Source: a bacterium (GTDB lineage Bacteria > AUK180). From it: a stretch of 39,897 nucleotides of DNA. Each line of letters starts with the position of its first letter. The stretch's first letter is position 1. The notes beneath the pieces were generated by a model that had not been told where the DNA came from, did no database searches, and worked only from the letters and a program-made list of their open reading frames with translations. Shown here in pieces: positions 11,213 through 37,087 of this stretch. The position numbers were made by a program, and so were the translations under genes. The DNA lies in NCBI GenBank assembly GCA_030622125.1, contig JAUXGM010000001.1, positions 1 to 39,897 on the forward strand, given 5' to 3'.

Positions 11213-13125
11213 AAGGGACAAAAAGAAATTTTATCTACGCTATTTTTCTTGCATTTGTGTTGATCATATTCCCTATTCTATCAAAAAAGATCCTTTTTAT
11301 CCTTGAAGGCAACAATCAACAGCTTGCTCACTACCTTATTTTTCAGTTCATAGCACTTTTTATAATTATAGCCGCCCTTTTATTTGTTGTACTTAAAAGT
11401 GTTTTATATTATTTTTATGAGAATAAAAAGAAACTCATGGGAAGACGGATAAATAGAAAATTTTCCGTTATAATATTTATCCTGATCTTTTTTGTTTCAG
11501 TTCCTTTTATTATTTACAATCTTTATTTTACCAATTTTCTCTTAAAACAATGGGGCGGAAAGGTTCTTGAATCCTCCATAACTTCCAGTGTTAAATTTTC
11601 TCAAAAACATATAGAGAGCTCAGTAAATGAAATTATTTTTAAGATAGATCATCTTGATAAAAAAGAATTGGAAAAATATAATATACACTTATCATCAGAA
11701 GAATTTGAACTCAAAAAAGATACGGGACGATATGAGAATGGAAAGATCTATTTATCTCATAACGGTGCAGTGTATGAAACCGACCTTTCTGCTGATGAGA
11801 TAGATTTTTTTAGAACATTGGATAAAAACTATAATTCTTTCAAAAAAGATATAAGTTTTAGAAAAAGAGCATCAAAATTATTTCTTGCTATTTCCATCAT
11901 TGTTATTACCGTATTGCTTTTTGCTATTACATTTTGGATCGCTAAATTTCTTGGTAAAGATATCATTTTATCAATTGAGAAACTTCTTGAAGGAACTATG
12001 GAATTGCAAAATGGGAACTTTGATGTTAAGATACAAAAAGTATCGGATGATGAATTGGGCTTGCTTATTGATAGATTCAATGAAATGAGCCTGATCTTGA
12101 AAAGGAATCAGAATAATCTTGAAAATTTAAAGAGCGAAATTGAAAAGGAAAGGGATTTTCAGAAATTGATCCTTTCACTTATCAATACCGGCATTATAAT
12201 CATAAATAAGAAAAATACAATTATTTTTGAAAATCAAACATATAAAAATATAAAAAATGCAACAAGAGAAAAAGAAAAATTCAGACAGATATTATTTCAG
12301 ATCGTAGATGATTATAAAAGAAATAATATAAACAAAAAAAGGATCCGTTTTAAAGATCATTTCTATCAGATAATGCTCATTCCCTTTACATATACATATA
12401 GAGGTTACATAATAATAATAGAAGATGTTACGGAATTATTACATCTCAGACAGGGTGAGATATGGCAGGAAATGGCAAAACAGCTTATGCATGAGCTAAA
12501 GAATCCGCTGACTCCGATATCCCTTTCAATCGAACGATTAAAAAGGAAATTTATTGACGGATCGGTAGATTTTAATGATATTTTTATTGAAAATCTTGAT
12601 ATGATCAAAGAAGAGGTTGAACGATTATCAAGGTTATTAAATCATTTCAATAATTTTGCAAGAATGCCGAAGGCTGTTTTTAAAGAATTTAATTTAAAAA
12701 AATTATTAACAAATTCAATAAAATTATATGAATTGGATCAAGAAAAAAATATTAAGATTCGATTTAATTATAATTGTAAAGATGAGATAATTTCCGGTGA
12801 TAAATTACTGTTCAAACAGGTTTTGGTGAATCTTTTTAAAAATAGTATAGAATCAATTGGAGAAAAATTAGGGGAAATCATTATTACCGTAAATGAAAAT
12901 GATGAATTTGTTACTATTCTTTTCAAGGATAACGGAATTGGTATCAAGAAAGAAGAATTGAGCAAGATATTTGATCTCTACTATTCAAAAAAGAAGGGTG
13001 GAACAGGGCTTGGGCTTACAATGGTCAGAAGAATAATAGACGAGCATAGTGGAAATATTCGGGTTGAATCGACAGTTGGAAAGGGAACAACATTCAAAAT
13101 ACAATTGAGGAGACGAGCTATTTGA
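11209..13125 (+). CDS. Sensor histidine kinase, NtrY-like (TM-HAMP-PAS-HisKA-HATPase)
   Basis: N-terminal TM helices. HAMP (DELGLLIDRFNEMSLIL). H-box HELKNPLTPISLSIERL. G-boxes GGTGLGLTMVRRII and GKGTTFKIQL. Confidence 0.9.
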   Translation: MKGTKRNFIYAIFLAFVLIIFPILSKKILFILEGNNQQLAHYLIFQFIALFIIIAALLFVVLKSVLYYFYENKKKLMGRRINRKFSVIIFILIFFVSVPFIIYNLYFTNFLLKQWGGKVLESSITSSVKFSQKHIESSVNEIIFKIDHLDKKELEKYNIHLSSEEFELKKDTGRYENGKIYLSHNGAVYETDLSADEIDFFRTLDKNYNSFKKDISFRKRASKLFLAISIIVITVLLFAITFWIAKFLGKDIILSIEKLLEGTMELQNGNFDVKIQKVSDDELGLLIDRFNEMSLILKRNQNNLENLKSEIEKERDFQKLILSLINTGIIIINKKNTIIFENQTYKNIKNATREKEKFRQILFQIVDDYKRNNINKKRIRFKDHFYQIMLIPFTYTYRGYIIIIEDVTELLHLRQGEIWQEMAKQLMHELKNPLTPISLSIERLKRKFIDGSVDFNDIFIENLDMIKEEVERLSRLLNHFNNFARMPKAVFKEFNLKKLLTNSIKLYELDQEKNIKIRFNYNCKDEIISGDKLLFKQVLVNLFKNSIESIGEKLGEIIITVNENDEFVTILFKDNGIGIKKEELSKIFDLYYSKKKGGTGLGLTMVRRIIDEHSGNIRVESTVGKGTTFKIQLRRRAI

Positions 13126-13775
13126 AATGTCCTATTTGTCATCAAAAAATTAAAAAAGGCGAATTTATTTGCACGGAATGTCTTGAAAGGATCAAATATC
13201 ATCCGATCTTTACATGTAAAAAATGCAAAAAGAAACTGAACGGTGATTACGGTAAATGTACGGATTGTAAAAATACCGTTTTTTACTATGATGAACTCAC
13301 AATACTCGGATATTATGAACACTTAATGGGAGAATTTGTAAAAAGAATAAAATTTAAACAAGAAAGAAAATTAGCGATCGCACTCGGAAAGAAACTTGGA
13401 GAAAAAATTAAGGAGAAAAAGTGGGAATATGATTACATTATCCCTATTCCAATGAGTGCTGACAGATTTCATGAAAGAGGTTTTAATCAAGCTTATGAAA
13501 TAGCGAAAGGGGTCAATAAGATATTAGGATCTACCGTAAAAAATAATCTGATAAAGAAAAAAAATTTGCCACCCTTAGAGCAGAAAAATAGAAAAGAGAG
13601 AATAAAACTGATGAAAAATTCCTTTATTGCAAATAAAAAAAGTGTCATCTTAAAAAATAAGAATATCCTTATTATTGATGATGTTTATACAACCGGCACA
13701 ACTGTAAACACCCTTGCCGGATTGATCAAAAAGATCGGTGCAAACAAGATTTATGTTGGCGTGCTCGCAAGATAG
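13122..13775 (+). CDS. comF: ComF family protein (phosphoribosyltransferase-type)
   Basis: N-terminal CxxC...CxxC zinc-finger-like region, ERGFNQA motif and PRTase motif ILIIDDVYTTGTT. TTG start overlapping the kinase stop. Confidence 0.8.
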   Translation: MKCPICHQKIKKGEFICTECLERIKYHPIFTCKKCKKKLNGDYGKCTDCKNTVFYYDELTILGYYEHLMGEFVKRIKFKQERKLAIALGKKLGEKIKEKKWEYDYIIPIPMSADRFHERGFNQAYEIAKGVNKILGSTVKNNLIKKKNLPPLEQKNRKERIKLMKNSFIANKKSVILKNKNILIIDDVYTTGTTVNTLAGLIKKIGANKIYVGVLAR

Positions 13776-13804
13776 CATAAAAGAGGGACATACCTCAACA
13801 ACAA

Positions 13805-13832
13805 GAGGTTAGAAGTTGGAGGTTAGAGGTTA
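13805..13832. repeat. Heptamer tandem array GAGGTTA x4
   Basis: GAGGTTA GAAGTTG GAGGTTA GAGGTTA, read directly. Confidence 0.9.
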
Positions 13833-13860
13833 GTGAAAAACAATATTAATCTCCGTAACT

Positions 13861-13914
13861 AACAAAAGAGGGACATACCTCATCAAACTGATTTTTTTTG
13901 TTGAGATGTGTCCC
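13861..13914 (-). terminator. Terminator-like hairpin (repeat module D), read on the - strand
   Basis: Arms GGGACATACCTCATC (13870-13884) and GTTGAGATGTGTCCC (13900-13914), about 13/15 paired, with a 15-nt loop. On the - strand the hairpin is followed by CUCUUUUGUU. There is no T-run on the + strand. Confidence 0.55.
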
Positions 13915-13977
13915 GGACTCTTCATTAGATAACGATATACCACCCGAAAACGATATAGACAAGGCAATAAGGAAATA
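13908..13977. repeat. Intergenic repeat core, copy 1 (70-nt long form)
   Basis: GTGTCCCGGACTCTTCATTAGATAACGATATACCACCCGAAAACGATATAGACAAGGCAATAAGGAAATA. 66/70 identical to copy 5 (25093-25162) by hand alignment. Confidence 0.9.
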
Positions 13978-14048
13978 CAGAGGTTAGAGGCAGTAAATGG
14001 TTGAGAGTTAGAATGCAAGAGCATGTATAATATTTTTTCTTGATTTTT

Positions 14049-14086
14049 GACCTTGAACCTTTGAACTTTTTAACCTTTTAACCTTT
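14049..14086. repeat. Tandem array AACCTTn x5 (7-9-nt units), inverse orientation to the GAGGTTA arrays
   Basis: GACCTTG AACCTTT GAACTTTTT AACCTTTT AACCTTT..., read directly. Confidence 0.8.
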
Positions 14087-14116
14087 TTTTTTGGTGCGTC
14101 CCAAGAAAGTTGAGAT

Positions 14117-14186
14117 GTGTCCCGGATTCTTCCTTAGATAACGATATACCTCCCGAAAACAATATAGACAAGGCAATAAGGGAATA
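14117..14186. repeat. Intergenic repeat core, copy 2 (70-nt long form)
   Basis: 65/70 identical to copy 1 by hand alignment. Preceded by only the right hairpin arm (GTTGAGAT). Confidence 0.9.
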
Positions 14187-14204
14187 AGAGAATAAGGAAA
14201 TAAG
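14173..14204. repeat. Octamer tandem array nnAATAAG x4
   Basis: GCAATAAG GGAATAAG AGAATAAG GAAATAAG. Extends the 3' end of core copy 2. Confidence 0.85.
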
Positions 14205-14232
14205 TAAAACAATATTAATCTCCGTAACCCAT

Positions 14233-14284
14233 AAAAAGAGGGACATACCTCAACTTTGGATATTTTAAAGTTGAGATGTGTCCC
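14233..14284 (-). terminator. Terminator-like hairpin (repeat module D), read on the - strand
   Basis: Arms GGGACATACCTCAAC (14240-14254) and GTTGAGATGTGTCCC (14270-14284), 14/15 paired including one wobble, with a 15-nt loop. On the - strand it is followed by UCUUUUUAU. It lies ~140-190 nt downstream of the MFS stop codon. Confidence 0.6.
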
Positions 14285-14340
14285 GGACTCTACATTAGAT
14301 AACGATAAACCACCCGAAAACAATATAGCCAAAGGAAATA
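14278..14340. repeat. Intergenic repeat core, copy 3 (63-nt short form)
   Basis: Same core, but ending GCCAAAGGAAATA (7 nt shorter than the long form). Confidence 0.9.
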
Positions 14341-14348
14341 GAAAGACT

Positions 14349-14411
14349 GTGTCCCGGACTCTTCCTTAGATAACGATAGACCTCCCGAAAACGATATAGC
14401 CAAAGGAAATA
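14349..14411. repeat. Intergenic repeat core, copy 4 (63-nt short form)
   Basis: In tandem with copy 3 (71-bp period, linker GAAAGACT). Ends 9 nt from the MFS stop codon. Confidence 0.9.
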
Positions 14412-14420
14412 CCCTCCTCG

Positions 14421-15575
14421 TCATTCTGAGGCTTTGACCTTGCTTTTTTTGAAAAGCAGGATCTGAATTATAATTATCGGGAATGGGAGTAAAAAAATAA
14501 AGGGATATCCGAAAGAATTTTTTAAATAGATCAAAAGTGGTGGTGCTATTGCCGGAATAATTCCGGTCAATGTTCCAAAATAGCCAAAGACCTTGCCACG
14601 ATTTTTTTCATGACTCTCCGCAGCCAAAAGAACATTTATTGCAACCATTGAGGGTTGAATTGCCATCCAACCGATTATAAAAAAGATATCTATCTTAAAA
14701 ATTACCCATAAAAAAATAAAGATAAAATGAAATGTCTGCGAAAAGAAGAATTGCAAAAGTCCCCTTTTAGGAGTTATCTTGTTACCGATCAATAATAAGA
14801 AGAGACCGCCAAAACCTCCTCCGATCGCGAATAAGAGATTGATCTTTATCGGAGTTAGATTTTCAATTTCATTCATAAACATTGTTGGAAAAGGTCCGAA
14901 AAAAGTAAATTGTAATAGGACATAAAAAAATATTCCCGCTATTAAAAGCGGAAACAATTTTTTTGGCATTTTAAATCTTTTTTTATCAGAGATATTTTTT
15001 TTAACGGATAAATAATTTTCATCAAGAACACCAAATAGAGATATTAAAAATGCAATGGAAGCAAAAAATGCGGTAATAGTAAATAGATTTTGTATCGTTA
15101 ATCCTTTTTTGAGAAGAAAATACCCTAAAAGCGGACCAAGACTAAAACCAATTATCAGATTTGCTTGATACCTTGCAAAGGTATTTCCAAAATCATTTTT
15201 TGGAACTGAGTTTGCAAGAAGCCCGGTTAAAATAGGAAATTGTAAAGATGTTAAAAGAGCGTAAATAAAATAGATAAAGGAAAGTAAATAATAAGATCTT
15301 GTTATACTCATCAATAGAAATAAAAAGGGATATATTCCCTGTATAATGATAATGAGCTTTTTTTTTCTGAATTTATCCGCTAAATGCCCGCCTATCAATT
15401 GAAAGAGGCAAAATCCAATTGCATAAGCAGAATAGGAGATGCCGATAAAAAGATCGCTTGCACCTAACTCTTTTAAATAAACAGGAAGGAGATATGCCCA
15501 TGTCAATATTCCGATAACTATTAAAAATCGGATCGTAGGAATTGATATTTTATTTCGATTTGATCTTTGAATCAC
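14421..15575 (-). CDS. MFS transporter
   Basis: 384 aa, about 11-12 hydrophobic helices. MFS motif-A-like loop GGHLADKFRKKK. Confidence 0.8.
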   Translation of the reverse strand: MIQRSNRNKISIPTIRFLIVIGILTWAYLLPVYLKELGASDLFIGISYSAYAIGFCLFQLIGGHLADKFRKKKLIIIIQGIYPFLFLLMSITRSYYLLSFIYFIYALLTSLQFPILTGLLANSVPKNDFGNTFARYQANLIIGFSLGPLLGYFLLKKGLTIQNLFTITAFFASIAFLISLFGVLDENYLSVKKNISDKKRFKMPKKLFPLLIAGIFFYVLLQFTFFGPFPTMFMNEIENLTPIKINLLFAIGGGFGGLFLLLIGNKITPKRGLLQFFFSQTFHFIFIFLWVIFKIDIFFIIGWMAIQPSMVAINVLLAAESHEKNRGKVFGYFGTLTGIIPAIAPPLLIYLKNSFGYPFIFLLPFPIIIIQILLFKKSKVKASE

Positions 15576-23912: not shown

Positions 23913-24930
23913 TTCCCTTGTTATTAGAGAAACCCTAAAAAAATTTTTTGAAAGTAATAATTATAAGGTTTCGACGGTAGAAGATGGGCATACATTTTAT
24001 AATTTTATTGAAAGCAACATTCCAGATATAATAATACTGGACAAAATGCTTCCGGATGATGATGGTTTTAACATACTTTATAAAATGAAACTAAATGCTA
24101 AATATAATTCCATACCCGTTATTATGTTTACCACCCAGGACCAATATGAAAATGAAATCACAGGATTAAAACTCGGAGCTGAGTGTTTTCTTTCAAAAGA
24201 TATAAAATTGGAAGAATTAAAACTTTGGGTAGACAGATTGATTGCAAAACAGGAAAAAATTGTATCTACAAAAAATAACCTAAAAAAATTATCATTAGAG
24301 ATCGAGAAAAAAGAAAGTTTACTTTATGAAAAAGCAATTGAGCTTAAAAAGACAAATGAAAAATTAATAAAACTTAGTTATGATTTAATAATGGTTCTTC
24401 TTAAAACAATTGAAGTAAAAGATGTTTATACAAAAAATCATTCTGAAAATGTTTCTAATCTTTCTCTTATAATTGCTTCTTATATTGGTTTTACTCCGAA
24501 GAAATTAAATGATGTAAAGATTGCCGGTTACCTTCACGATATCGGCAAAATAGGTATTAGCGAGACCATTCTTAATTACCCGAATAAATTAGATACTCAA
24601 AGTCGAAGGATTATTGAAAATCATCCGATATTAGGAGCTGATATAATCAAGTCGGTTGATTCTTTATCACATTTAGCAAGTTTTGTAAGACAACATCACG
24701 AAAATTTCGATGGGTCTGGTTATCCTGACAAATTGATAGGTGAAGAAATTTCCATAGAAGGCAGGATACTTAGAATAGCTGATTTTTTTGATGCTCTTTC
24801 AACTGATAGGGTTTATAGACCCGCATACTCGGTAGAAGAGACATTGAATATGATGAAAGGAAAAAAGGGCATCTATTTTGATCCTGAAATACTTGAAACA
24901 TTTTTTAAAATCATTCAAAAGGGAAGTTGA
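23887..24930 (+). CDS. Response regulator with HD-GYP domain (RpfG-type putative c-di-GMP phosphodiesterase)
   Basis: REC (HILVVDDS...IIILDKMLPDDDG). Coiled-coil linker. HD-GYP motifs GYLHDIGKIGI and HHENFDGSGYP. I prefer ATG 23887 (MKHILVVDD) over 23872. Confidence 0.9.
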   Translation: MKHILVVDDSLVIRETLKKFFESNNYKVSTVEDGHTFYNFIESNIPDIIILDKMLPDDDGFNILYKMKLNAKYNSIPVIMFTTQDQYENEITGLKLGAECFLSKDIKLEELKLWVDRLIAKQEKIVSTKNNLKKLSLEIEKKESLLYEKAIELKKTNEKLIKLSYDLIMVLLKTIEVKDVYTKNHSENVSNLSLIIASYIGFTPKKLNDVKIAGYLHDIGKIGISETILNYPNKLDTQSRRIIENHPILGADIIKSVDSLSHLASFVRQHHENFDGSGYPDKLIGEEISIEGRILRIADFFDALSTDRVYRPAYSVEETLNMMKGKKGIYFDPEILETFFKIIQKGS

Positions 24931-24951
24931 ATAAGGAAATACCGAAAAACA

Positions 24952-24972
24952 GAGGTTGGAGGTTAGAGGTTA
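24952..24972. repeat. Heptamer tandem array GAGGTTR x3
   Basis: GAGGTTG GAGGTTA GAGGTTA, followed by GTGAAG as at 13833. Confidence 0.9.
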
Positions 24973-24986
24973 GTGAAGAATACCAG

Positions 24987-25018
24987 AGAATAAGAAAATA
25001 AGTTAATAAGGAAATAAA
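24987..25018. repeat. Octamer tandem array nnAATAAG x4
   Basis: AGAATAAG AAAATAAG TTAATAAG GAAATAAA. Confidence 0.85.
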
Positions 25019-25047
25019 ATTTAGGATTTTGGGTTTGGGTTTTTCTG

Positions 25048-25082
25048 TCACTATTCACTTTTCACTATTCATTTTTCACTTG
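25048..25082. repeat. Heptamer tandem array TCACTWT x5
   Basis: TCACTAT TCACTTT TCACTAT TCATTTT TCACTTG. Confidence 0.9.
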
Positions 25083-25092
25083 TTTTTTTGGT

Positions 25093-25162
25093 GTGTCCCG
25101 GACTCTTCCTTAGATAACAATATACCACCCGAGAACAATATAGACAAGGCAATAAGGAAATA
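25093..25162. repeat. Intergenic repeat core, copy 5 (70-nt long form)
   Basis: GTGTCCCGGACTCTTCCTTAGATAACAATATACCACCCGAGAACAATATAGACAAGGCAATAAGGAAATA. 66/70 identical to copy 1. Confidence 0.9.
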
Positions 25163-25231
25163 CGGGAAATGGGTGTATAAGTAAATGAGTTGATGGGTTG
25201 ATAAGGAAAGAAGATTTGAAATATGTGATTA

Positions 25232-25906
25232 TTACGGATTACTGACGGGAACCCTATATGTTGCACACCTTGCAAGCAATGAAAAGATTGCAATCTCGGT
25301 TCGTAATATATACGGAGAAAGATTGATCGGTTGAAAACCGTTTGTGATAAGTAATTTCTCTTCTTTTTCGGTAAATCCTCCCTCGGGACCTATAACAATT
25401 TTTGAAATAAAATTTTTGGGTTTCTGTTTTTTCTCCTTAAAAAATAATGAGCCGAAATAGCCATTTTTATCATCGCACTTGATATCATTAAATCCAATTA
25501 TATCCGATAATTTAGGAAGATATGGGTTACCGCTTTGCTTTATACCTTCTATCAATAATCGTTCATCGGAACTTTGCCATTTTCTCTTTGCAACAGAATA
25601 GGTTGAATTAAAAAGGTAGATATTTTTTATTGGATATGCGGTAATATTCCGCATAATAAAACGATGTGAACTATTTTTTATCATCGGGAGATAAACATCA
25701 ATTGTATGCAAGCGACTTTCTTTAAATCTTTCTATTACCTTTATTTTTTTCTCTCCGTCAAAGATCCCAATTGCAACATTGCCATCACCGGACAATATTT
25801 TAATTTTTTCTTTCTTTACTCTTAAAACTTTTAAGTGTCTTATACTGTTTTTAGAAAGCTCAATTGTGCTACCTTCTATATTCCTTTGGAAAATATTAGG
25901 AATCAT
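25232..25906 (-). CDS. rsmE: 16S rRNA (uracil1498-N3)-methyltransferase RsmE
   Basis: C-terminal SPOUT motif IVIGPEGGFTEKEE...LRTEIA. The ORF extends to 25945, but ATG 25906 (MIPNIFQR...) fits the usual RsmE N-terminus better. Start uncertain. Confidence 0.75.
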   Translation of the reverse strand: MIPNIFQRNIEGSTIELSKNSIRHLKVLRVKKEKIKILSGDGNVAIGIFDGEKKIKVIERFKESRLHTIDVYLPMIKNSSHRFIMRNITAYPIKNIYLFNSTYSVAKRKWQSSDERLLIEGIKQSGNPYLPKLSDIIGFNDIKCDDKNGYFGSLFFKEKKQKPKNFISKIVIGPEGGFTEKEEKLLITNGFQPINLSPYILRTEIAIFSLLARCATYRVPVSNP

Positions 25907-26776: not shown

Positions 26777-28633
26777 CTATTCCTCCCAGTAAAATATTAT
26801 CCCGCTTTCAGGATATATAAAACTATTATCACTGATTGCAATTTTTATACCATTTTTTTCTTTTTTGATCCTTTCTTTTATGTTCCTTCCGGTAAAAAAT
26901 GGAAAATATTTTATTCCCTTGGATTTTACAGAAAATTCTATCTCTGCATTTTTAGTGAAATCAGTAAAAAACACGGGAAATAGTCTCATATCTTTTTTAT
27001 AAAAAGTTGCTATTTCAATTTTAAAATGTCCCTTATTTCTCACTGAATTTTTGTATCTATATCTATAAATATGCTGATCTTTTTCAATCTTCTTGCTGTA
27101 TCTTAATTCATTTTCATCTATGTAAAAAGATTTGATGATAAAATCATCTTTCAAGAGCTCTTCTTTTTCTAAAAATTCCCTATATATAAAACTCCTGTCT
27201 TTAAGAAAATCCTCAAGTGTTTTATTGTTATTGGTAACCCCGATTTTCATCATACCTTCCGTAATCCATTTATCAAATGAAATAACCGTATCTACTCTAT
27301 AGAATTCACGATTAAAATTTTTGAGTTCTATCTTATATTTAAAATTTTCCCTGACAAGATTCCATGAACTACCAAACAACTGTTTGAAAAAATCTTCTTT
27401 TATGTGGTTTCCCAGTTCGCCTGAAAGGTCAATATTATAAAGTTTTTTTACTATTTTAAGAATATCAAGATCTTTCACTATTGAAGGTAGTGGTCTTTTA
27501 TTTGTTTCCTTTATCTTAGAGGGCAAAATATAAATTCGTATTGCCCTTCTTCCGATATTACTTAATACCTCATAAGAAATTGTTTTAAGTTCATTTGCAA
27601 TATCGTCCGCTGTTATTTTTACACCACCATCCTGTCCGATAATTGTTACAATATCACCTTTCTTTATCGGTGTAATAGCATTTGTGATATCCACCATTAT
27701 CATATCCATTGTAACCGTTCCAATTATTGGAAATTTCTGTCCTTTTATAATTACCATTCCATTATTGGAAAGAAACCGGAAAAAACCATCGGCGTAACCA
27801 ACAGGGATAACAGCAATCTTTGCTTTCTTTTTTGTGATAAATGTTCTTCCGTAAGAAATTGACTTTTCTTTATCATATTCTTTGACAAGTACAATTTTGC
27901 TTTTAAAGCTCATGATCGGAGTTGTTAAATCCTGGGTTTGCCCATCCGGAGCATATCCAAAGGAGAGAAGTCCTATTCTAATCATATTAAAGATTGAATC
28001 TTTGTAATTAAGGACTCCACCTGAATTTGTAATATGACGCAACTGAAAATGATAACCTTTTTTATTTAAATCTTCAATTATCATTTTGAATTTCTTGATC
28101 TGTGATCTTGTAAATTTGTTTTGCGTTTCCGATATGGGAAAATGACTGAATAATCCTTCTATCTCTAAATTTTTTAATGACCAAATTTTTTTAATATTTT
28201 TGTAAAGATCTTTTTCCAAAAAACCGCCGCGACCCATACCGGTATCAACTTCAAGATGAACCTTGAGCCTTTTGTTAACAGATCTATTTAATCTGACCGC
28301 AAAATCAAGATCGGATATAGATGGGATTAAATTGTAGCTAACAATATCGTCTATTTCTTCTTTTATAGATGGACCCAGTATGATTATATCCCCTTTTATT
28401 CCGTTTTCCCGCAATAAAATCCCCTCTTTTGCATTTGCAACACCAAAAAATTTTATACCAAGTTGACTTGCCGATCTTGCTATTTCAACGCTTCCATGTC
28501 CATATCCATCGGCTTTTACTACCTGCAAATAATTTATTTTTTTTGAAAACAGTGAAGATATTGCTTTTACATTTTTTTCATATCTGTTTAGATCAATTTC
28601 AACCCAACTTCTATATGAGTCTTCTTTTACCAT
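26777..28633 (-). CDS. alr: Alanine racemase fused to a ~249-aa C-terminal domain of unknown function
   Basis: PLP-lysine motif VVKADGYGHG. The canonical fold ends near ...ISYEVLSNIGRRAIRIYI (about aa 369). Another 249 residues follow without a stop (about 26780-27526). Confidence 0.85.
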   Translation of the reverse strand: MVKEDSYRSWVEIDLNRYEKNVKAISSLFSKKINYLQVVKADGYGHGSVEIARSASQLGIKFFGVANAKEGILLRENGIKGDIIILGPSIKEEIDDIVSYNLIPSISDLDFAVRLNRSVNKRLKVHLEVDTGMGRGGFLEKDLYKNIKKIWSLKNLEIEGLFSHFPISETQNKFTRSQIKKFKMIIEDLNKKGYHFQLRHITNSGGVLNYKDSIFNMIRIGLLSFGYAPDGQTQDLTTPIMSFKSKIVLVKEYDKEKSISYGRTFITKKKAKIAVIPVGYADGFFRFLSNNGMVIIKGQKFPIIGTVTMDMIMVDITNAITPIKKGDIVTIIGQDGGVKITADDIANELKTISYEVLSNIGRRAIRIYILPSKIKETNKRPLPSIVKDLDILKIVKKLYNIDLSGELGNHIKEDFFKQLFGSSWNLVRENFKYKIELKNFNREFYRVDTVISFDKWITEGMMKIGVTNNNKTLEDFLKDRSFIYREFLEKEELLKDDFIIKSFYIDENELRYSKKIEKDQHIYRYRYKNSVRNKGHFKIEIATFYKKDMRLFPVFFTDFTKNAEIEFSVKSKGIKYFPFFTGRNIKERIKKEKNGIKIAISDNSFIYPESGIIFYWEE

Positions 28634-36191: not shown

Positions 36192-36236
36192 AATAAGGAA
36201 ATACAGAGGTTAGTAAAAAACAATATTAAACTCCGT
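36192..36236. repeat. Partial copy of the intergenic mosaic (AATAAGGAAATA-CAGAGGTTAG-AAAAACAATATTAAACTCCGT)
   Basis: The junction AATAAGGAAATACAGAGGTTAG is identical to 13966-13987. The AACAATATTAAnCTCCGT tail matches 13840-13856 and 14209-14225. Confidence 0.8.
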
Positions 36237-36278
36237 CAACCATGCTATCGGGATTTAAATAATCGGTCATGCAGTTTA

Positions 36279-36334: not shown

Positions 36335-37087
36335 TTATTCTTTCGGTTCTTCTGTTTTCTTTTCTTCTTCTTTCTCTGTTCCCTCTGTGATTTCTTTCTC
36401 TGTTTTTTCTTTGTTTTTTTCTTCTTTACCAACCTCTAACCTTGAACCTCGAACCTCTGTTTTTCCTTCTTCACCAACTTCTTCTTTCTTCTTTACTTCT
36501 TGCTTTTCATTGTCAATTGTTTTCTCTTCCTCTATTTTTTGTTTCTCCATGTCCTCTGTGGTTACCATTTCTTCTTCTTTTTCTTCCGATTTTTCTTCAC
36601 TATTCACTATTAACTGTTCACTATTCACTGTCTTTTTATTGCCTCCAACCTCTTTTTTTGTTACTTTCTCTGTTACTTCTTCTGGTTTCTCTTCAATTTT
36701 CTTTTCTTCTGTTTTTTCTTTGTTTTTTTCTTCTTCTCCAACCTCTTTTTTTTGCTTTCTATCTTTTTTCGGTTTGCTGGGTAAGACCATTGTTTGCGGA
36801 GCTAACGGTTCTATATTCTCATCCCTTTTGTATTCTTCATACCATTTGTAAAAACCATACTTCGAAAGTAAACTCTTTGCAATTTCAGTCGGTTTTGCTC
36901 CACTTTTCAACCATTTTACTATTTTAGTAGATGGTTTATCTATCCTTAGCTTTCCCTCAATGGGATTGTAGTGTCCCAATTGTTCCAAAACAGCACCGTC
37001 TCTCGGCTTTCTTGAATCAATAACAACAAGCCGATAATACGGCTGCTTCTTTTTTCCAATTCTCTTTAATCTTATCTTTAATGACAT
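36335..37087 (-). CDS. rpsP: 30S ribosomal protein S16 with ~160-aa E/K-rich C-terminal extension
   Basis: The N-terminus MSLKIRLKRIGKKKQPYYRLVVIDSRKPRDG...HYNP is canonical S16. The ORF continues uninterrupted to 250 aa. Follows ffh. Confidence 0.9.
   Translation of the reverse strand: MSLKIRLKRIGKKKQPYYRLVVIDSRKPRDGAVLEQLGHYNPIEGKLRIDKPSTKIVKWLKSGAKPTEIAKSLLSKYGFYKWYEEYKRDENIEPLAPQTMVLPSKPKKDRKQKKEVGEEEKNKEKTEEKKIEEKPEEVTEKVTKKEVGGNKKTVNSEQLIVNSEEKSEEKEEEMVTTEDMEKQKIEEEKTIDNEKQEVKKKEEVGEEGKTEVRGSRLEVGKEEKNKEKTEKEITEGTEKEEEKKTEEPKE
36431..36458. repeat. Heptamer array AACCTCn x4 inside the rpsP tail (GAGGTT on the coding strand)
   Basis: AACCTCT AACCTTG AACCTCG AACCTCT. The coding strand reads AGAGGTT CGAGGTT CAAGGTT AGAGGTT. 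Confidence 0.9.
36597..36631. repeat. Heptamer array TCACTAT x5 inside the rpsP tail
   Basis: TCACTAT TCACTAT TAACTGT TCACTAT TCACTGT. Same unit, copy number and + strand orientation as the non-coding array at 25048-25082. Confidence 0.9.

Follow-up and report, generated by a model that had tools for sequence, protein, structure and literature searches.

A probable cluster of a composite small interspersed repeat family fills a convergent intergenic gap in an uncultured, AT-rich bacterium

What kind of DNA lies between the convergent comF-like and MFS genes of contig JAUXGM010000001.1 (GenBank assembly GCA_030622125.1)? The stretch that we analysed, hereafter the window, is this entire metagenome contig of 39,897 bp with 32% GC. 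The comF-like gene (13122-13775, plus strand) carries Pribosyltran and double zinc ribbon domains, and the MFS gene that faces it (14421-15575, minus strand) matches MFS_1. An initial annotation had described the gap between them as a mosaic array without a credible open reading frame (ORF), in which almost every base belongs to a recurring module. We find that the gap is probably a cluster of a lineage-specific composite (mosaic) family of small interspersed repeats, of the kind to which BIME, NIME, BOX and the cyanobacterial STRR/SDR belong. The sequence family is previously undescribed; the kind of DNA is known and ordinary. The modular build of the family, its dispersal to unrelated loci in both orientations, its truncated and orphan parts, its structurally conserved hairpin and its non-coding nature are all directly observed.

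The array consists almost entirely of recurring sequence. In an all-against-all short BLAST, 86% of positions 13760-14440 recur within that region or in other array-bearing regions, which bears out the claim made for almost every base. Four copies of a 78-nt family lie at 13900-13977, 14109-14186, 14270-14347 and 14341-14418 (73-94% identity to the reference), and a 31-nt core pattern, with up to three mismatches allowed, matches at 13907, 14116, 14277, 14348 and 25092 but in none of 100 shuffles. Pattern and repeat search thus agree on the four cores of 63-70 nt that the initial annotation had placed in the gap, and the two long cores, said there to be alike at 65 of 70 positions, indeed differ at 5/70 when W1 is aligned with W2. 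Similarly, repeat search and Tandem Repeats Finder (TRF) recovered the hairpins, the orphan hairpin arm, the 23-nt module and the 7-8-nt arrays where they had been reported. The short-period arrays occupy 13804-13833 (7 nt), 14045-14087 (8 nt) and 14170-14204 (8 nt), and the module CAATATTAATCTCCGTAAC occurs at 13837-13867 and again at 14206-14236, spaced by 369 bp. The left hairpin arm GAGGGACATACCTCA is found three times (13783, 13868 and 14238), where 0.03 occurrences are expected by chance, and the string of arm plus A-tract, AAAAGAGGGACATACCTCAAC, likewise has three copies in the window by repeat search. The right arm ends with TGTGTCCC, which is the start of the core as well. The modules of the gap are given below in order; L006, L007, L008, L012 and L013 are further array-bearing contigs whose sources are given later, and the Logan contigs derive from an independent k-mer assembly of SRR32546279.

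13779-13799, plus strand: orphan left hairpin arm and A-tract, AAAAGAGGGACATACCTCAAC, 3 nt past the comF stop; same junction in Logan contig L011
13804-13833, plus strand: AGAGGTT heptamer array, 4.3 copies; same heptamer at 24951-24973 and in L006, L008, L012 and L013
13837-13859, plus strand: 23-nt T module AAAACAATATTAATCTCCGTAAC, copy 1; variants at 36217 and in L006 (two), L007 and L008
13864-13914, plus strand: hairpin with loop type A, CTGATTTTT; AAAAGA, then arms at 13870-13887 and 13897-13914; -19.5 kcal/mol; loop type also in L007
13907-13977, plus strand: core W1, long form, ending in AATAAGGAAATA; nhmmer E = 4e-25
13979-14092, plus strand: imperfect long hairpin of AGAGGTT-type against TTTTAACC/GAACCTT repeats, then T9 (14084-14092)
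14093-14123, plus strand: GGTGCGTCCCAAGAAA, then orphan right arm GTTGAGATGTGTCCC; the T-run plus GGTGYGTCCCAAGA module also in L013
14116-14186, plus strand: core W2, long form; found by pattern, nhmmer and alignment
14170-14204, plus strand: octamer array AATAAGGR; three octamers from core to T module, as in L006, L007 and L008
14206-14228, plus strand: T module, copy 2
14234-14284, plus strand: hairpin with loop type B, GGATATTTT; AAAAGA, then arms at 14240-14257 and 14267-14284; identical hairpin twice in L006
14277-14340, plus strand: core W3, short form, ending in CCAAAGGAAATA
14341-14347, plus strand: linker GAAAGAC; junction of short core, GAAAGAC and TGTGTCCC also in L006 and L007
14348-14411, plus strand: core W4, short form; 3' part confirmed by Logan contig L001
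14417-14430, minus strand: CTCAGAATGACGAG, a 14-nt string with the MFS stop codon; also in non-coding DNA of L008

The family is composed of about ten short modules with a usual order: octamers AATAAGGRAATA, AGAGGTT heptamers, the 23-nt module, a linker of 4-6 nt, AAAAGA with the hairpin, the core of 55-70 nt, and octamers again. Since octamers stand at both the start and the end of the unit, units can be chained head to tail. Successive cores are spaced by 161 nt in both the window (14116 to 14277) and L006, and by 162 nt in L007; in each of the three, exactly three octamers separate the core from the 23-nt module. Moreover, the block that runs from core through three octamers, T module, hairpin, short core and GAAAGAC to TGTGTCCC is collinear and ∼90% identical in the window, L006 and L007. 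It follows that the 71-bp tandem, which TRF does find (14277-14411, 1.9 copies, 92% matches), is not a local duplication or slip but a dispersed composite that is also present in L006 and L007. The ∼370-bp higher-order period in the initial annotation is likewise present but, given the collinear block with its 161-nt period, equals 209 + 161, and it is the 161-nt period that recurs elsewhere. The true recurring unit is thus ∼161 nt (core, three octamers, 23-nt module, hairpin and next core), and not 70 nt or 370 bp. Blocks at unrelated loci are complete or are truncated at recurrent break points, one of which lies directly after TGTGTCCCGGAYTC in both L006 and L008, and cores start at TGTGTCCC following GTTGAGA, GAAAGAC or a T-run plus GG. 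Further modules shared among arrays are TGAGATTATTACG, CTCAGAATGACGAG, the CCAGCACC...GGTGCTGG hairpin and AAAGGTTCAGAAGA. The plus strand of the octamers and heptamers is rich in strings that resemble Shine-Dalgarno sequences (UAAGGA, GAGGU, AGAGGGA), and the minus strand of the array resembles the 3' end of 16S ribosomal RNA (ACCUC, UCCUUA); this likeness may be due to chance in purine-rich repeats.

The family extends beyond this one gap. Three gaps in the contig exceed 100 bp, and all three are convergent and contain the same modules in the same orientation. Within a contig that is otherwise tightly packed, the repeats fill every convergent gap and touch both stop codons. The modules of the two other gaps are as follows.

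24930-25081, plus strand: gap 2, between a response regulator/HD gene and rsmE; octamers, AGAGGTT heptamers, TTTGGG repeats and TCACTAT heptamers
25092-25162, plus strand: core W5, long form, following T7GG; no hairpin
36192-36239, plus strand: gap 3, between folK and rpsP; AATAAGGAAATA, CAGAGGTTAG and a variant of the T module, without hairpin or core

The fit to gene ends is close. In both gap 2 and L006, the upstream stop codon ends on the first A of the octamer, and the edges of the arrays also take in the stop codons of MFS and rsmE. Both of these stop codons lie inside strings (14417-14430 for MFS, 25224-25236 for rsmE) that recur elsewhere as non-coding modules; the rsmE string, TGAGATTATTACG, is shared with L007 and L012, and L013 has two inverted copies of it. 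In both genes, the original 3' end may have given way to repeat sequence. Gap 2, at ∼24.9-25.2 kb, is also the site at which gene orientation switches from plus to minus and cumulative GC skew peaks, which could mark a replication terminus or could be mere coding-strand bias.

Ribosomal protein S16 (36335-37087, minus strand) is 250 residues long with a Lys/Glu-rich tail of ∼150 residues. In frame within this tail, AGAGGTT-type repeats are read as TEVRGSRLEVG and AGTGAAT-type repeats as TVNSEQLIVNSEE, especially at 36431-36458 and 36596-36629. The tail thus shares its heptamer arrays with the intergenic mosaics, which suggests either that modules were recruited into coding sequence or that the gene runs into a former array.

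To find copies outside the window, we translated the three open frames (of six) of the core as a chimera and used it in a protein database search; one hit of the chimera was then the query against a set of 1.84 billion representative proteins. At least eight ‘hypothetical proteins’ (P0121-P0127 and P0129) proved to be translated repeat DNA, read in three different frames, and the repeat family is therefore a source of spurious protein clusters in public databases. Five further contigs were obtained, with eight more cores and eight more hairpins. The nhmmer profile of the core, a check that the initial annotation had proposed, together with nhmmer alignments of the hairpin, brings the total to 13 full cores and 10 full hairpins on six contigs in varied gene contexts, and reveals none elsewhere in the window. 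The sources of the five contigs are as follows.

L006: JGI 3300042089
L007: ENA, South China Sea Site-F cold-seep metagenome (PMC9357000; PRJNA707313)
L008: JGI 3300040951
L012: ENA, the same Site-F cold-seep study as L007 (PMC9357000)
L013: JGI 3300042089

The contigs with repeats come from at least four samples, the five further ones from two JGI and two South China Sea cold-seep samples, and the neighbours of the arrays differ among them (MscS/PorV-like genes, an ABC transporter, a truncated zupT-like ORF). The gene that adjoins the array in L006 has a PorV-like domain, and L006 may be from another organism. Both orientations relative to the neighbours are seen, with L006 in one and L012 and L013 in the other, and L008 contains two opposed elements. 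Two of these loci have features of their own. In L012, a zupT/ZIP-like ORF (964-1389) loses its likeness to the transporter after ∼88 residues, at the point where the array starts, and the remainder of the gene is absent; the truncation or deletion may be linked to the repeats. In L008, ∼350 bp of AT-rich DNA (2378-2731) between the two opposed elements contains no ORF and no recognised module, and has small hairpins, for example CCCTCAATCAGAAAGATTGAGG and GTAGAAGAT...ATCTTCTAC.

Other searches returned little. The exact core pattern matched nothing in genome contigs or metagenome contigs, while the pattern of the hairpin/core junction gave only two chance matches, in GC-rich coding DNA (L009 and L010), and none in viral contigs. 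A 2416-residue chimera of all open frames had no match in the protein search, no contig record was retrieved for rsmE, folK, P0124 or P0125, and BLAST against plasmids and phages gave one marginal match of 49 nt and otherwise none.

The host is not closely related to any organism in the databases that we searched. Compared with database proteins, the polynucleotide phosphorylase (PNPase) of the window reaches only 62-64% identity with the nearest and ∼50% with those of Nitrospirota, Desulfobacterota and Calditrichota, and no close relative was found among genome contigs with the neighbouring histidine kinase as query. A syntenic contig, L002 (nusA-infB...pnp...histidine kinase-comF; PNPase 63%), has a gap of 95 bp after comF and zero arrays. 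The existence of this relative without arrays argues that the family is lineage-specific. L002 has 48% GC compared to 32% for the window, a strong shift of base composition within the clade.

The hairpin has 18 pairs and a 9-nt loop, and 94% of all cells in the alignment of its pairs are paired. Nearest the loop, three pairs read U-A in five copies and A-U in three others, around a constant loop centre, CTGATTTTT, and a C-A mismatch becomes C-G in two copies. Folding energies range from -19 to -26 kcal/mol on either strand (for 14234-14284, -26.4 kcal/mol on the plus and -23.2 on the minus strand), and since either strand contains a single wobble pair and a single mismatch, pairing does not distinguish between them. 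Of the copies that are not cut off on the 5' side by a contig end, 9/9 have AAAAGA just before the hairpin; UCUUUU thus follows the stem when the minus strand is read, which is the form of an intrinsic terminator. A consensus scan for intrinsic terminators did not call the hairpin, because its 9-nt loop exceeds 8 nt. In this orientation, the hairpin is sense to the MFS gene in the window and to the upstream ORF in L012, and antisense to both neighbours in L006. The two arms are adjacent as a close hairpin with the 9-nt loop in 10 of 12 cases, and only chained units have a right-arm/left-arm pair at a distance of ∼150 nt. AAAAGAG and GGAYTC form the two flanks of the hairpin. A separate structure, the long hairpin at 13979-14092, folds at -31.3 kcal/mol on the plus strand (z = -3.2) versus -15.1 on the minus strand; we considered and rejected a general plus-strand terminator made of a heptamer hairpin and a T-run, as its counterparts in gap 2 and L013 are unstructured (z = -0.3 and 0.1).

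The family does not fall into any of the narrower classes that we compared. Rfam 15, which the initial annotation had named as a check, gave no match in the window at gathering thresholds, and in E-value mode it gave sub-threshold noise of miRNA and snoRNA type alone, with 13-28 bits against cut-offs of 58-119. The core matches no Rfam family, in keeping with the initial annotation, and it is not of REP, CRISPR or insertion sequence (IS) end form. REP sequences are defined by a GC-rich palindrome of 20-40 nt with GTAG or CGTC at one end (PMC3733652), whereas the element here has 18-nt arms, a 9-nt loop and neither tag. CRISPR was rejected since the repeats are 63-70 nt long and the ‘spacers’ each consist of 7 nt or of a further repeated module, and a miniature transposable element with terminal inverted repeats because the arms are mostly adjacent rather than bounding the unit; AATAAGGAAATA, a candidate target site, does flank full units on both sides, but is itself an array module. 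An integron attC site was rejected as well, given no cassettes, no integrase and a GTTGAGA that misfits the GTTRRRY core site. What we do find are several separate loci, units below ∼200 bp, a recurring pattern of sub-sequences and an extragenic, non-coding location, as in composite small interspersed repeats.

How such a family would have spread can be proposed from its arrangement. Tandem duplication or slippage, combined with recombination or transposition in trans, would account for the arrays, and the hairpin is a possible recognition site for whatever moves the element; GGGACAYACCTCAAC would then be the sequence expected at the ends of a mobilising IS element, transposase or recombinase. 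The element appears to persist at the 3' ends of genes because insertions are tolerated there, and the best reading is that it tolerates or prefers such sites. The arrays are probably co-transcribed as 3' untranslated regions (UTRs), and on the minus strand the hairpin with UCUUUU is a predicted intrinsic terminator or 3'-end stabiliser, for instance for the MFS gene.

Several points weigh against an interspersed repeat family of this kind. The further copies are on separate metagenome contigs, possibly of other species, and the copy counts cover six contigs and not a genome. Of the proteins scanned against Pfam, from the 40-kb contig and the five others, none is a transposase, REP-associated tyrosine transposase (RAYT) or recombinase, so that we can only infer mobility. 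Neither a target-site duplication nor a presence/absence polymorphism was demonstrated, the nearest syntenic relative being too distant. The antisense placement of the hairpins to both neighbours in L006 means that a role as terminator is not general. Furthermore, the invariant blocks of the core, the covariation in the hairpin and the constant three octamers could alternatively reflect a function for the host.

Such a function is the basis of the alternative that we regard as unlikely but nonetheless the leading rival, in which each unit is a small RNA gene or a cis-acting RNA module of a 3' UTR, read from the minus strand as a C/U-rich body of ∼55-80 nt (the reverse complement of core and octamers) followed by the 18-bp hairpin and UCUUUU. 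The hairpin with its U-tract, kept in nine of nine copies and with covarying pairs, fits this proposal, as do the invariant core blocks and the constant number of octamers between core and T module. It is opposed by the promoter evidence: promoter-like sites are in no excess over shuffles, and a conserved sigma-70-type promoter in the core was rejected since the only -10-like hexamer falls on the most variable columns, whereas clear promoters of TTGACA/TATAAT type are present at genes that adjoin the L006 and L012 arrays. Some cores also lack a hairpin (W2, W4 and W5) and some hairpins lack a core (L008, 2316-2378), no structure is predicted for the core, Rfam has no match, and the covariation of the hairpin fits recognition of single-stranded DNA or recognition by a protein equally well. 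Rather unlikely in our judgement is a related proposal, that hairpin and core are the working part of an undescribed system, either a non-autonomous mobile element or a minus-strand RNA family. As a mobile element, a recombinase could recognise the GGGACAY/RTGTCCC hairpin and shuffle modules there; as an RNA family, it would have C/U-rich bodies that look like the anti-Shine-Dalgarno sequence, each closed by the hairpin terminator. In either form, the microsatellite modules can be recruited into coding sequence, as in the tail of S16. Quite improbable, we think, is an array of protein-binding sites on DNA. A nucleoid-associated protein, or one of partition or recombination, would then bind either the putative direct half-sites AACGATATA, which each core has at a spacing of 18 nt, or the arms of the hairpin, much as in NIME/dRS3 or centromere-like repeats. 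Conservation of the core is indeed block-wise (TGTGTCCCGGA, TTAGATAAC and CCCGA, with a 9-nt direct repeat, AACGATATA, inside the core), TGTGTCCC is a recurrent break point and all copies in the window share a single orientation, but no candidate gene for a binding protein or recombinase is nearby and the half-site varies (CGATATA/CAATATA/CAGTATA).

The remaining two explanations are very poorly favoured. The repeats might encode small proteins, either CVPDSSLDNDIPPENDIDKAIRK in a plus frame or MSLF...LIALSILFSGGISLSKEESGTHLN, a hydrophobic product of the minus strand that resembles a type I toxin. The core is open in three of its six frames, the hairpin arm has a conserved ATG, and public pipelines annotate such ORFs as hypothetical proteins. 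The gap itself contains ORFs of 20-84 residues (for example 14078-14332, minus strand), so that the claim of no credible ORF is inexact as to their existence but right as to their nature: they are by-products of the repeat and non-coding. Variable columns of the core are distributed over the three codon phases as 6/7/5, with no three-base periodicity, and neither period, 71 or 161 nt, is divisible by 3. Core copy 4 has no start codon, the ORFs that begin at the hairpin-arm ATG vary from 5 to ∼80 codons with unrelated C-terminal ends, GAGG abuts the ATG too closely for a ribosome-binding site, and there is no Pfam match. We accordingly rejected a type I toxin or other coding peptide, given no periodicity and no conserved ORF, and consider this explanation already largely refuted. 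An assembly artefact, against which the initial annotation had cautioned, would be a chimeric or collapsed joining of repeat reads and is given as little credence. The contig is indeed from a metagenome assembly, and the k-mer assembly of SRR32546279 breaks at both array edges, where its two contigs stop 30 nt past the comF stop and 36 nt past the MFS stop. Both of these contigs, however, match the window exactly at the array edges although assembled independently, and the inner order of the blocks is seen again where contigs come from different samples and assemblers. With differences of 6-27% among them, the copies are divergent enough to be assembled through. The number of units in the comF/MFS array rests on the one assembly of the window.

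Elsewhere in the contig, the alanine racemase ORF (26777-28633, minus strand) is 618 residues long; Pfam domains cover residues 13-368, and the ∼250 C-terminal residues are without a domain.

We therefore return to a family of composite interspersed repeats, one more lineage-specific family among the many in bacteria, here in a deep-branching, uncultured and AT-rich host. With a complete genome it would be a compact natural case for how modular repeats and arrays of 7-8 nt arise and shuffle, and for whether hairpins are co-opted as terminators where intergenic DNA is otherwise scarce. It also has practical consequences, in that short-read assemblies of this organism break at the repeats, exactly at gene ends, and in that the repeats overlap stop codons or supply them.

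Composite interspersed repeats in other bacteria are enriched between convergent genes, create spurious ORFs on both strands and affect co-transcribed genes (PMC3049150; PMC3184786). The BIMEs of enterobacteria, clusters of REP/PU, are similar to the family here in being mosaics of a hairpin unit and short motifs in a regular pattern, and in being extragenic, often at 3' ends or in convergent gaps, where they attenuate or stabilise transcripts (PMC3049150; PMC3184786). They differ in that the hairpin here has an 18-bp stem and a 9-nt loop in an AT-rich context, without a GTAG/CGTC head (PMC3733652). Moreover, no RAYT is seen, an unstructured core of 55-70 nt and microsatellite-like arrays of 7-8 nt are added, and at the sequence level the two are not similar. 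BOX elements of Streptococcus pneumoniae (boxA-boxB(n)-boxC) are likewise composite with a variable number of internal tandem modules, occur in an AT-rich genome, are over-represented in convergent gaps and, in their large copies, make annotated ORFs on both strands; they are judged parasitic, yet can alter the expression of co-transcribed genes (PMC3049150). Unlike BOX, the family here is in an unrelated host lineage, has a different and larger set of modules, is not bounded by terminal inverted repeats and has no candidate mobilising IS. In NIME/Correia elements, short inverted-repeat units alternate with repeats of 50-150 bp, dispersed between genes and linked to recombination (PMC3049150; PMC3184786), whereas here the arms are adjacent as a hairpin instead of flanking each unit, and no association with a phage or recombinase is seen.

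Intrinsic terminators and the pneumococcal SPRITE share with the hairpin a GC-closed stem followed by a U-rich tract, on the minus strand near the 3' ends of genes. An 18-bp stem with a 9-nt loop is beyond their usual range, and the L006 copies, antisense to both neighbours, are a further difference. The last comparison is with cyanobacteria, in which Elhai et al. (writing in Genome Research in 2008) reportedly described STRR heptamer arrays with nested, hairpin-forming small dispersed repeats that make mosaics of intergenic regions. The host here is not a cyanobacterium, the unit is far longer (161 nt) and the sequences are unrelated. Nevertheless, in a comparison that serves as a lead and not as a test, the likeness is in the build itself: tandem intergenic arrays of heptamers, combined with small dispersed repeats that form hairpins.

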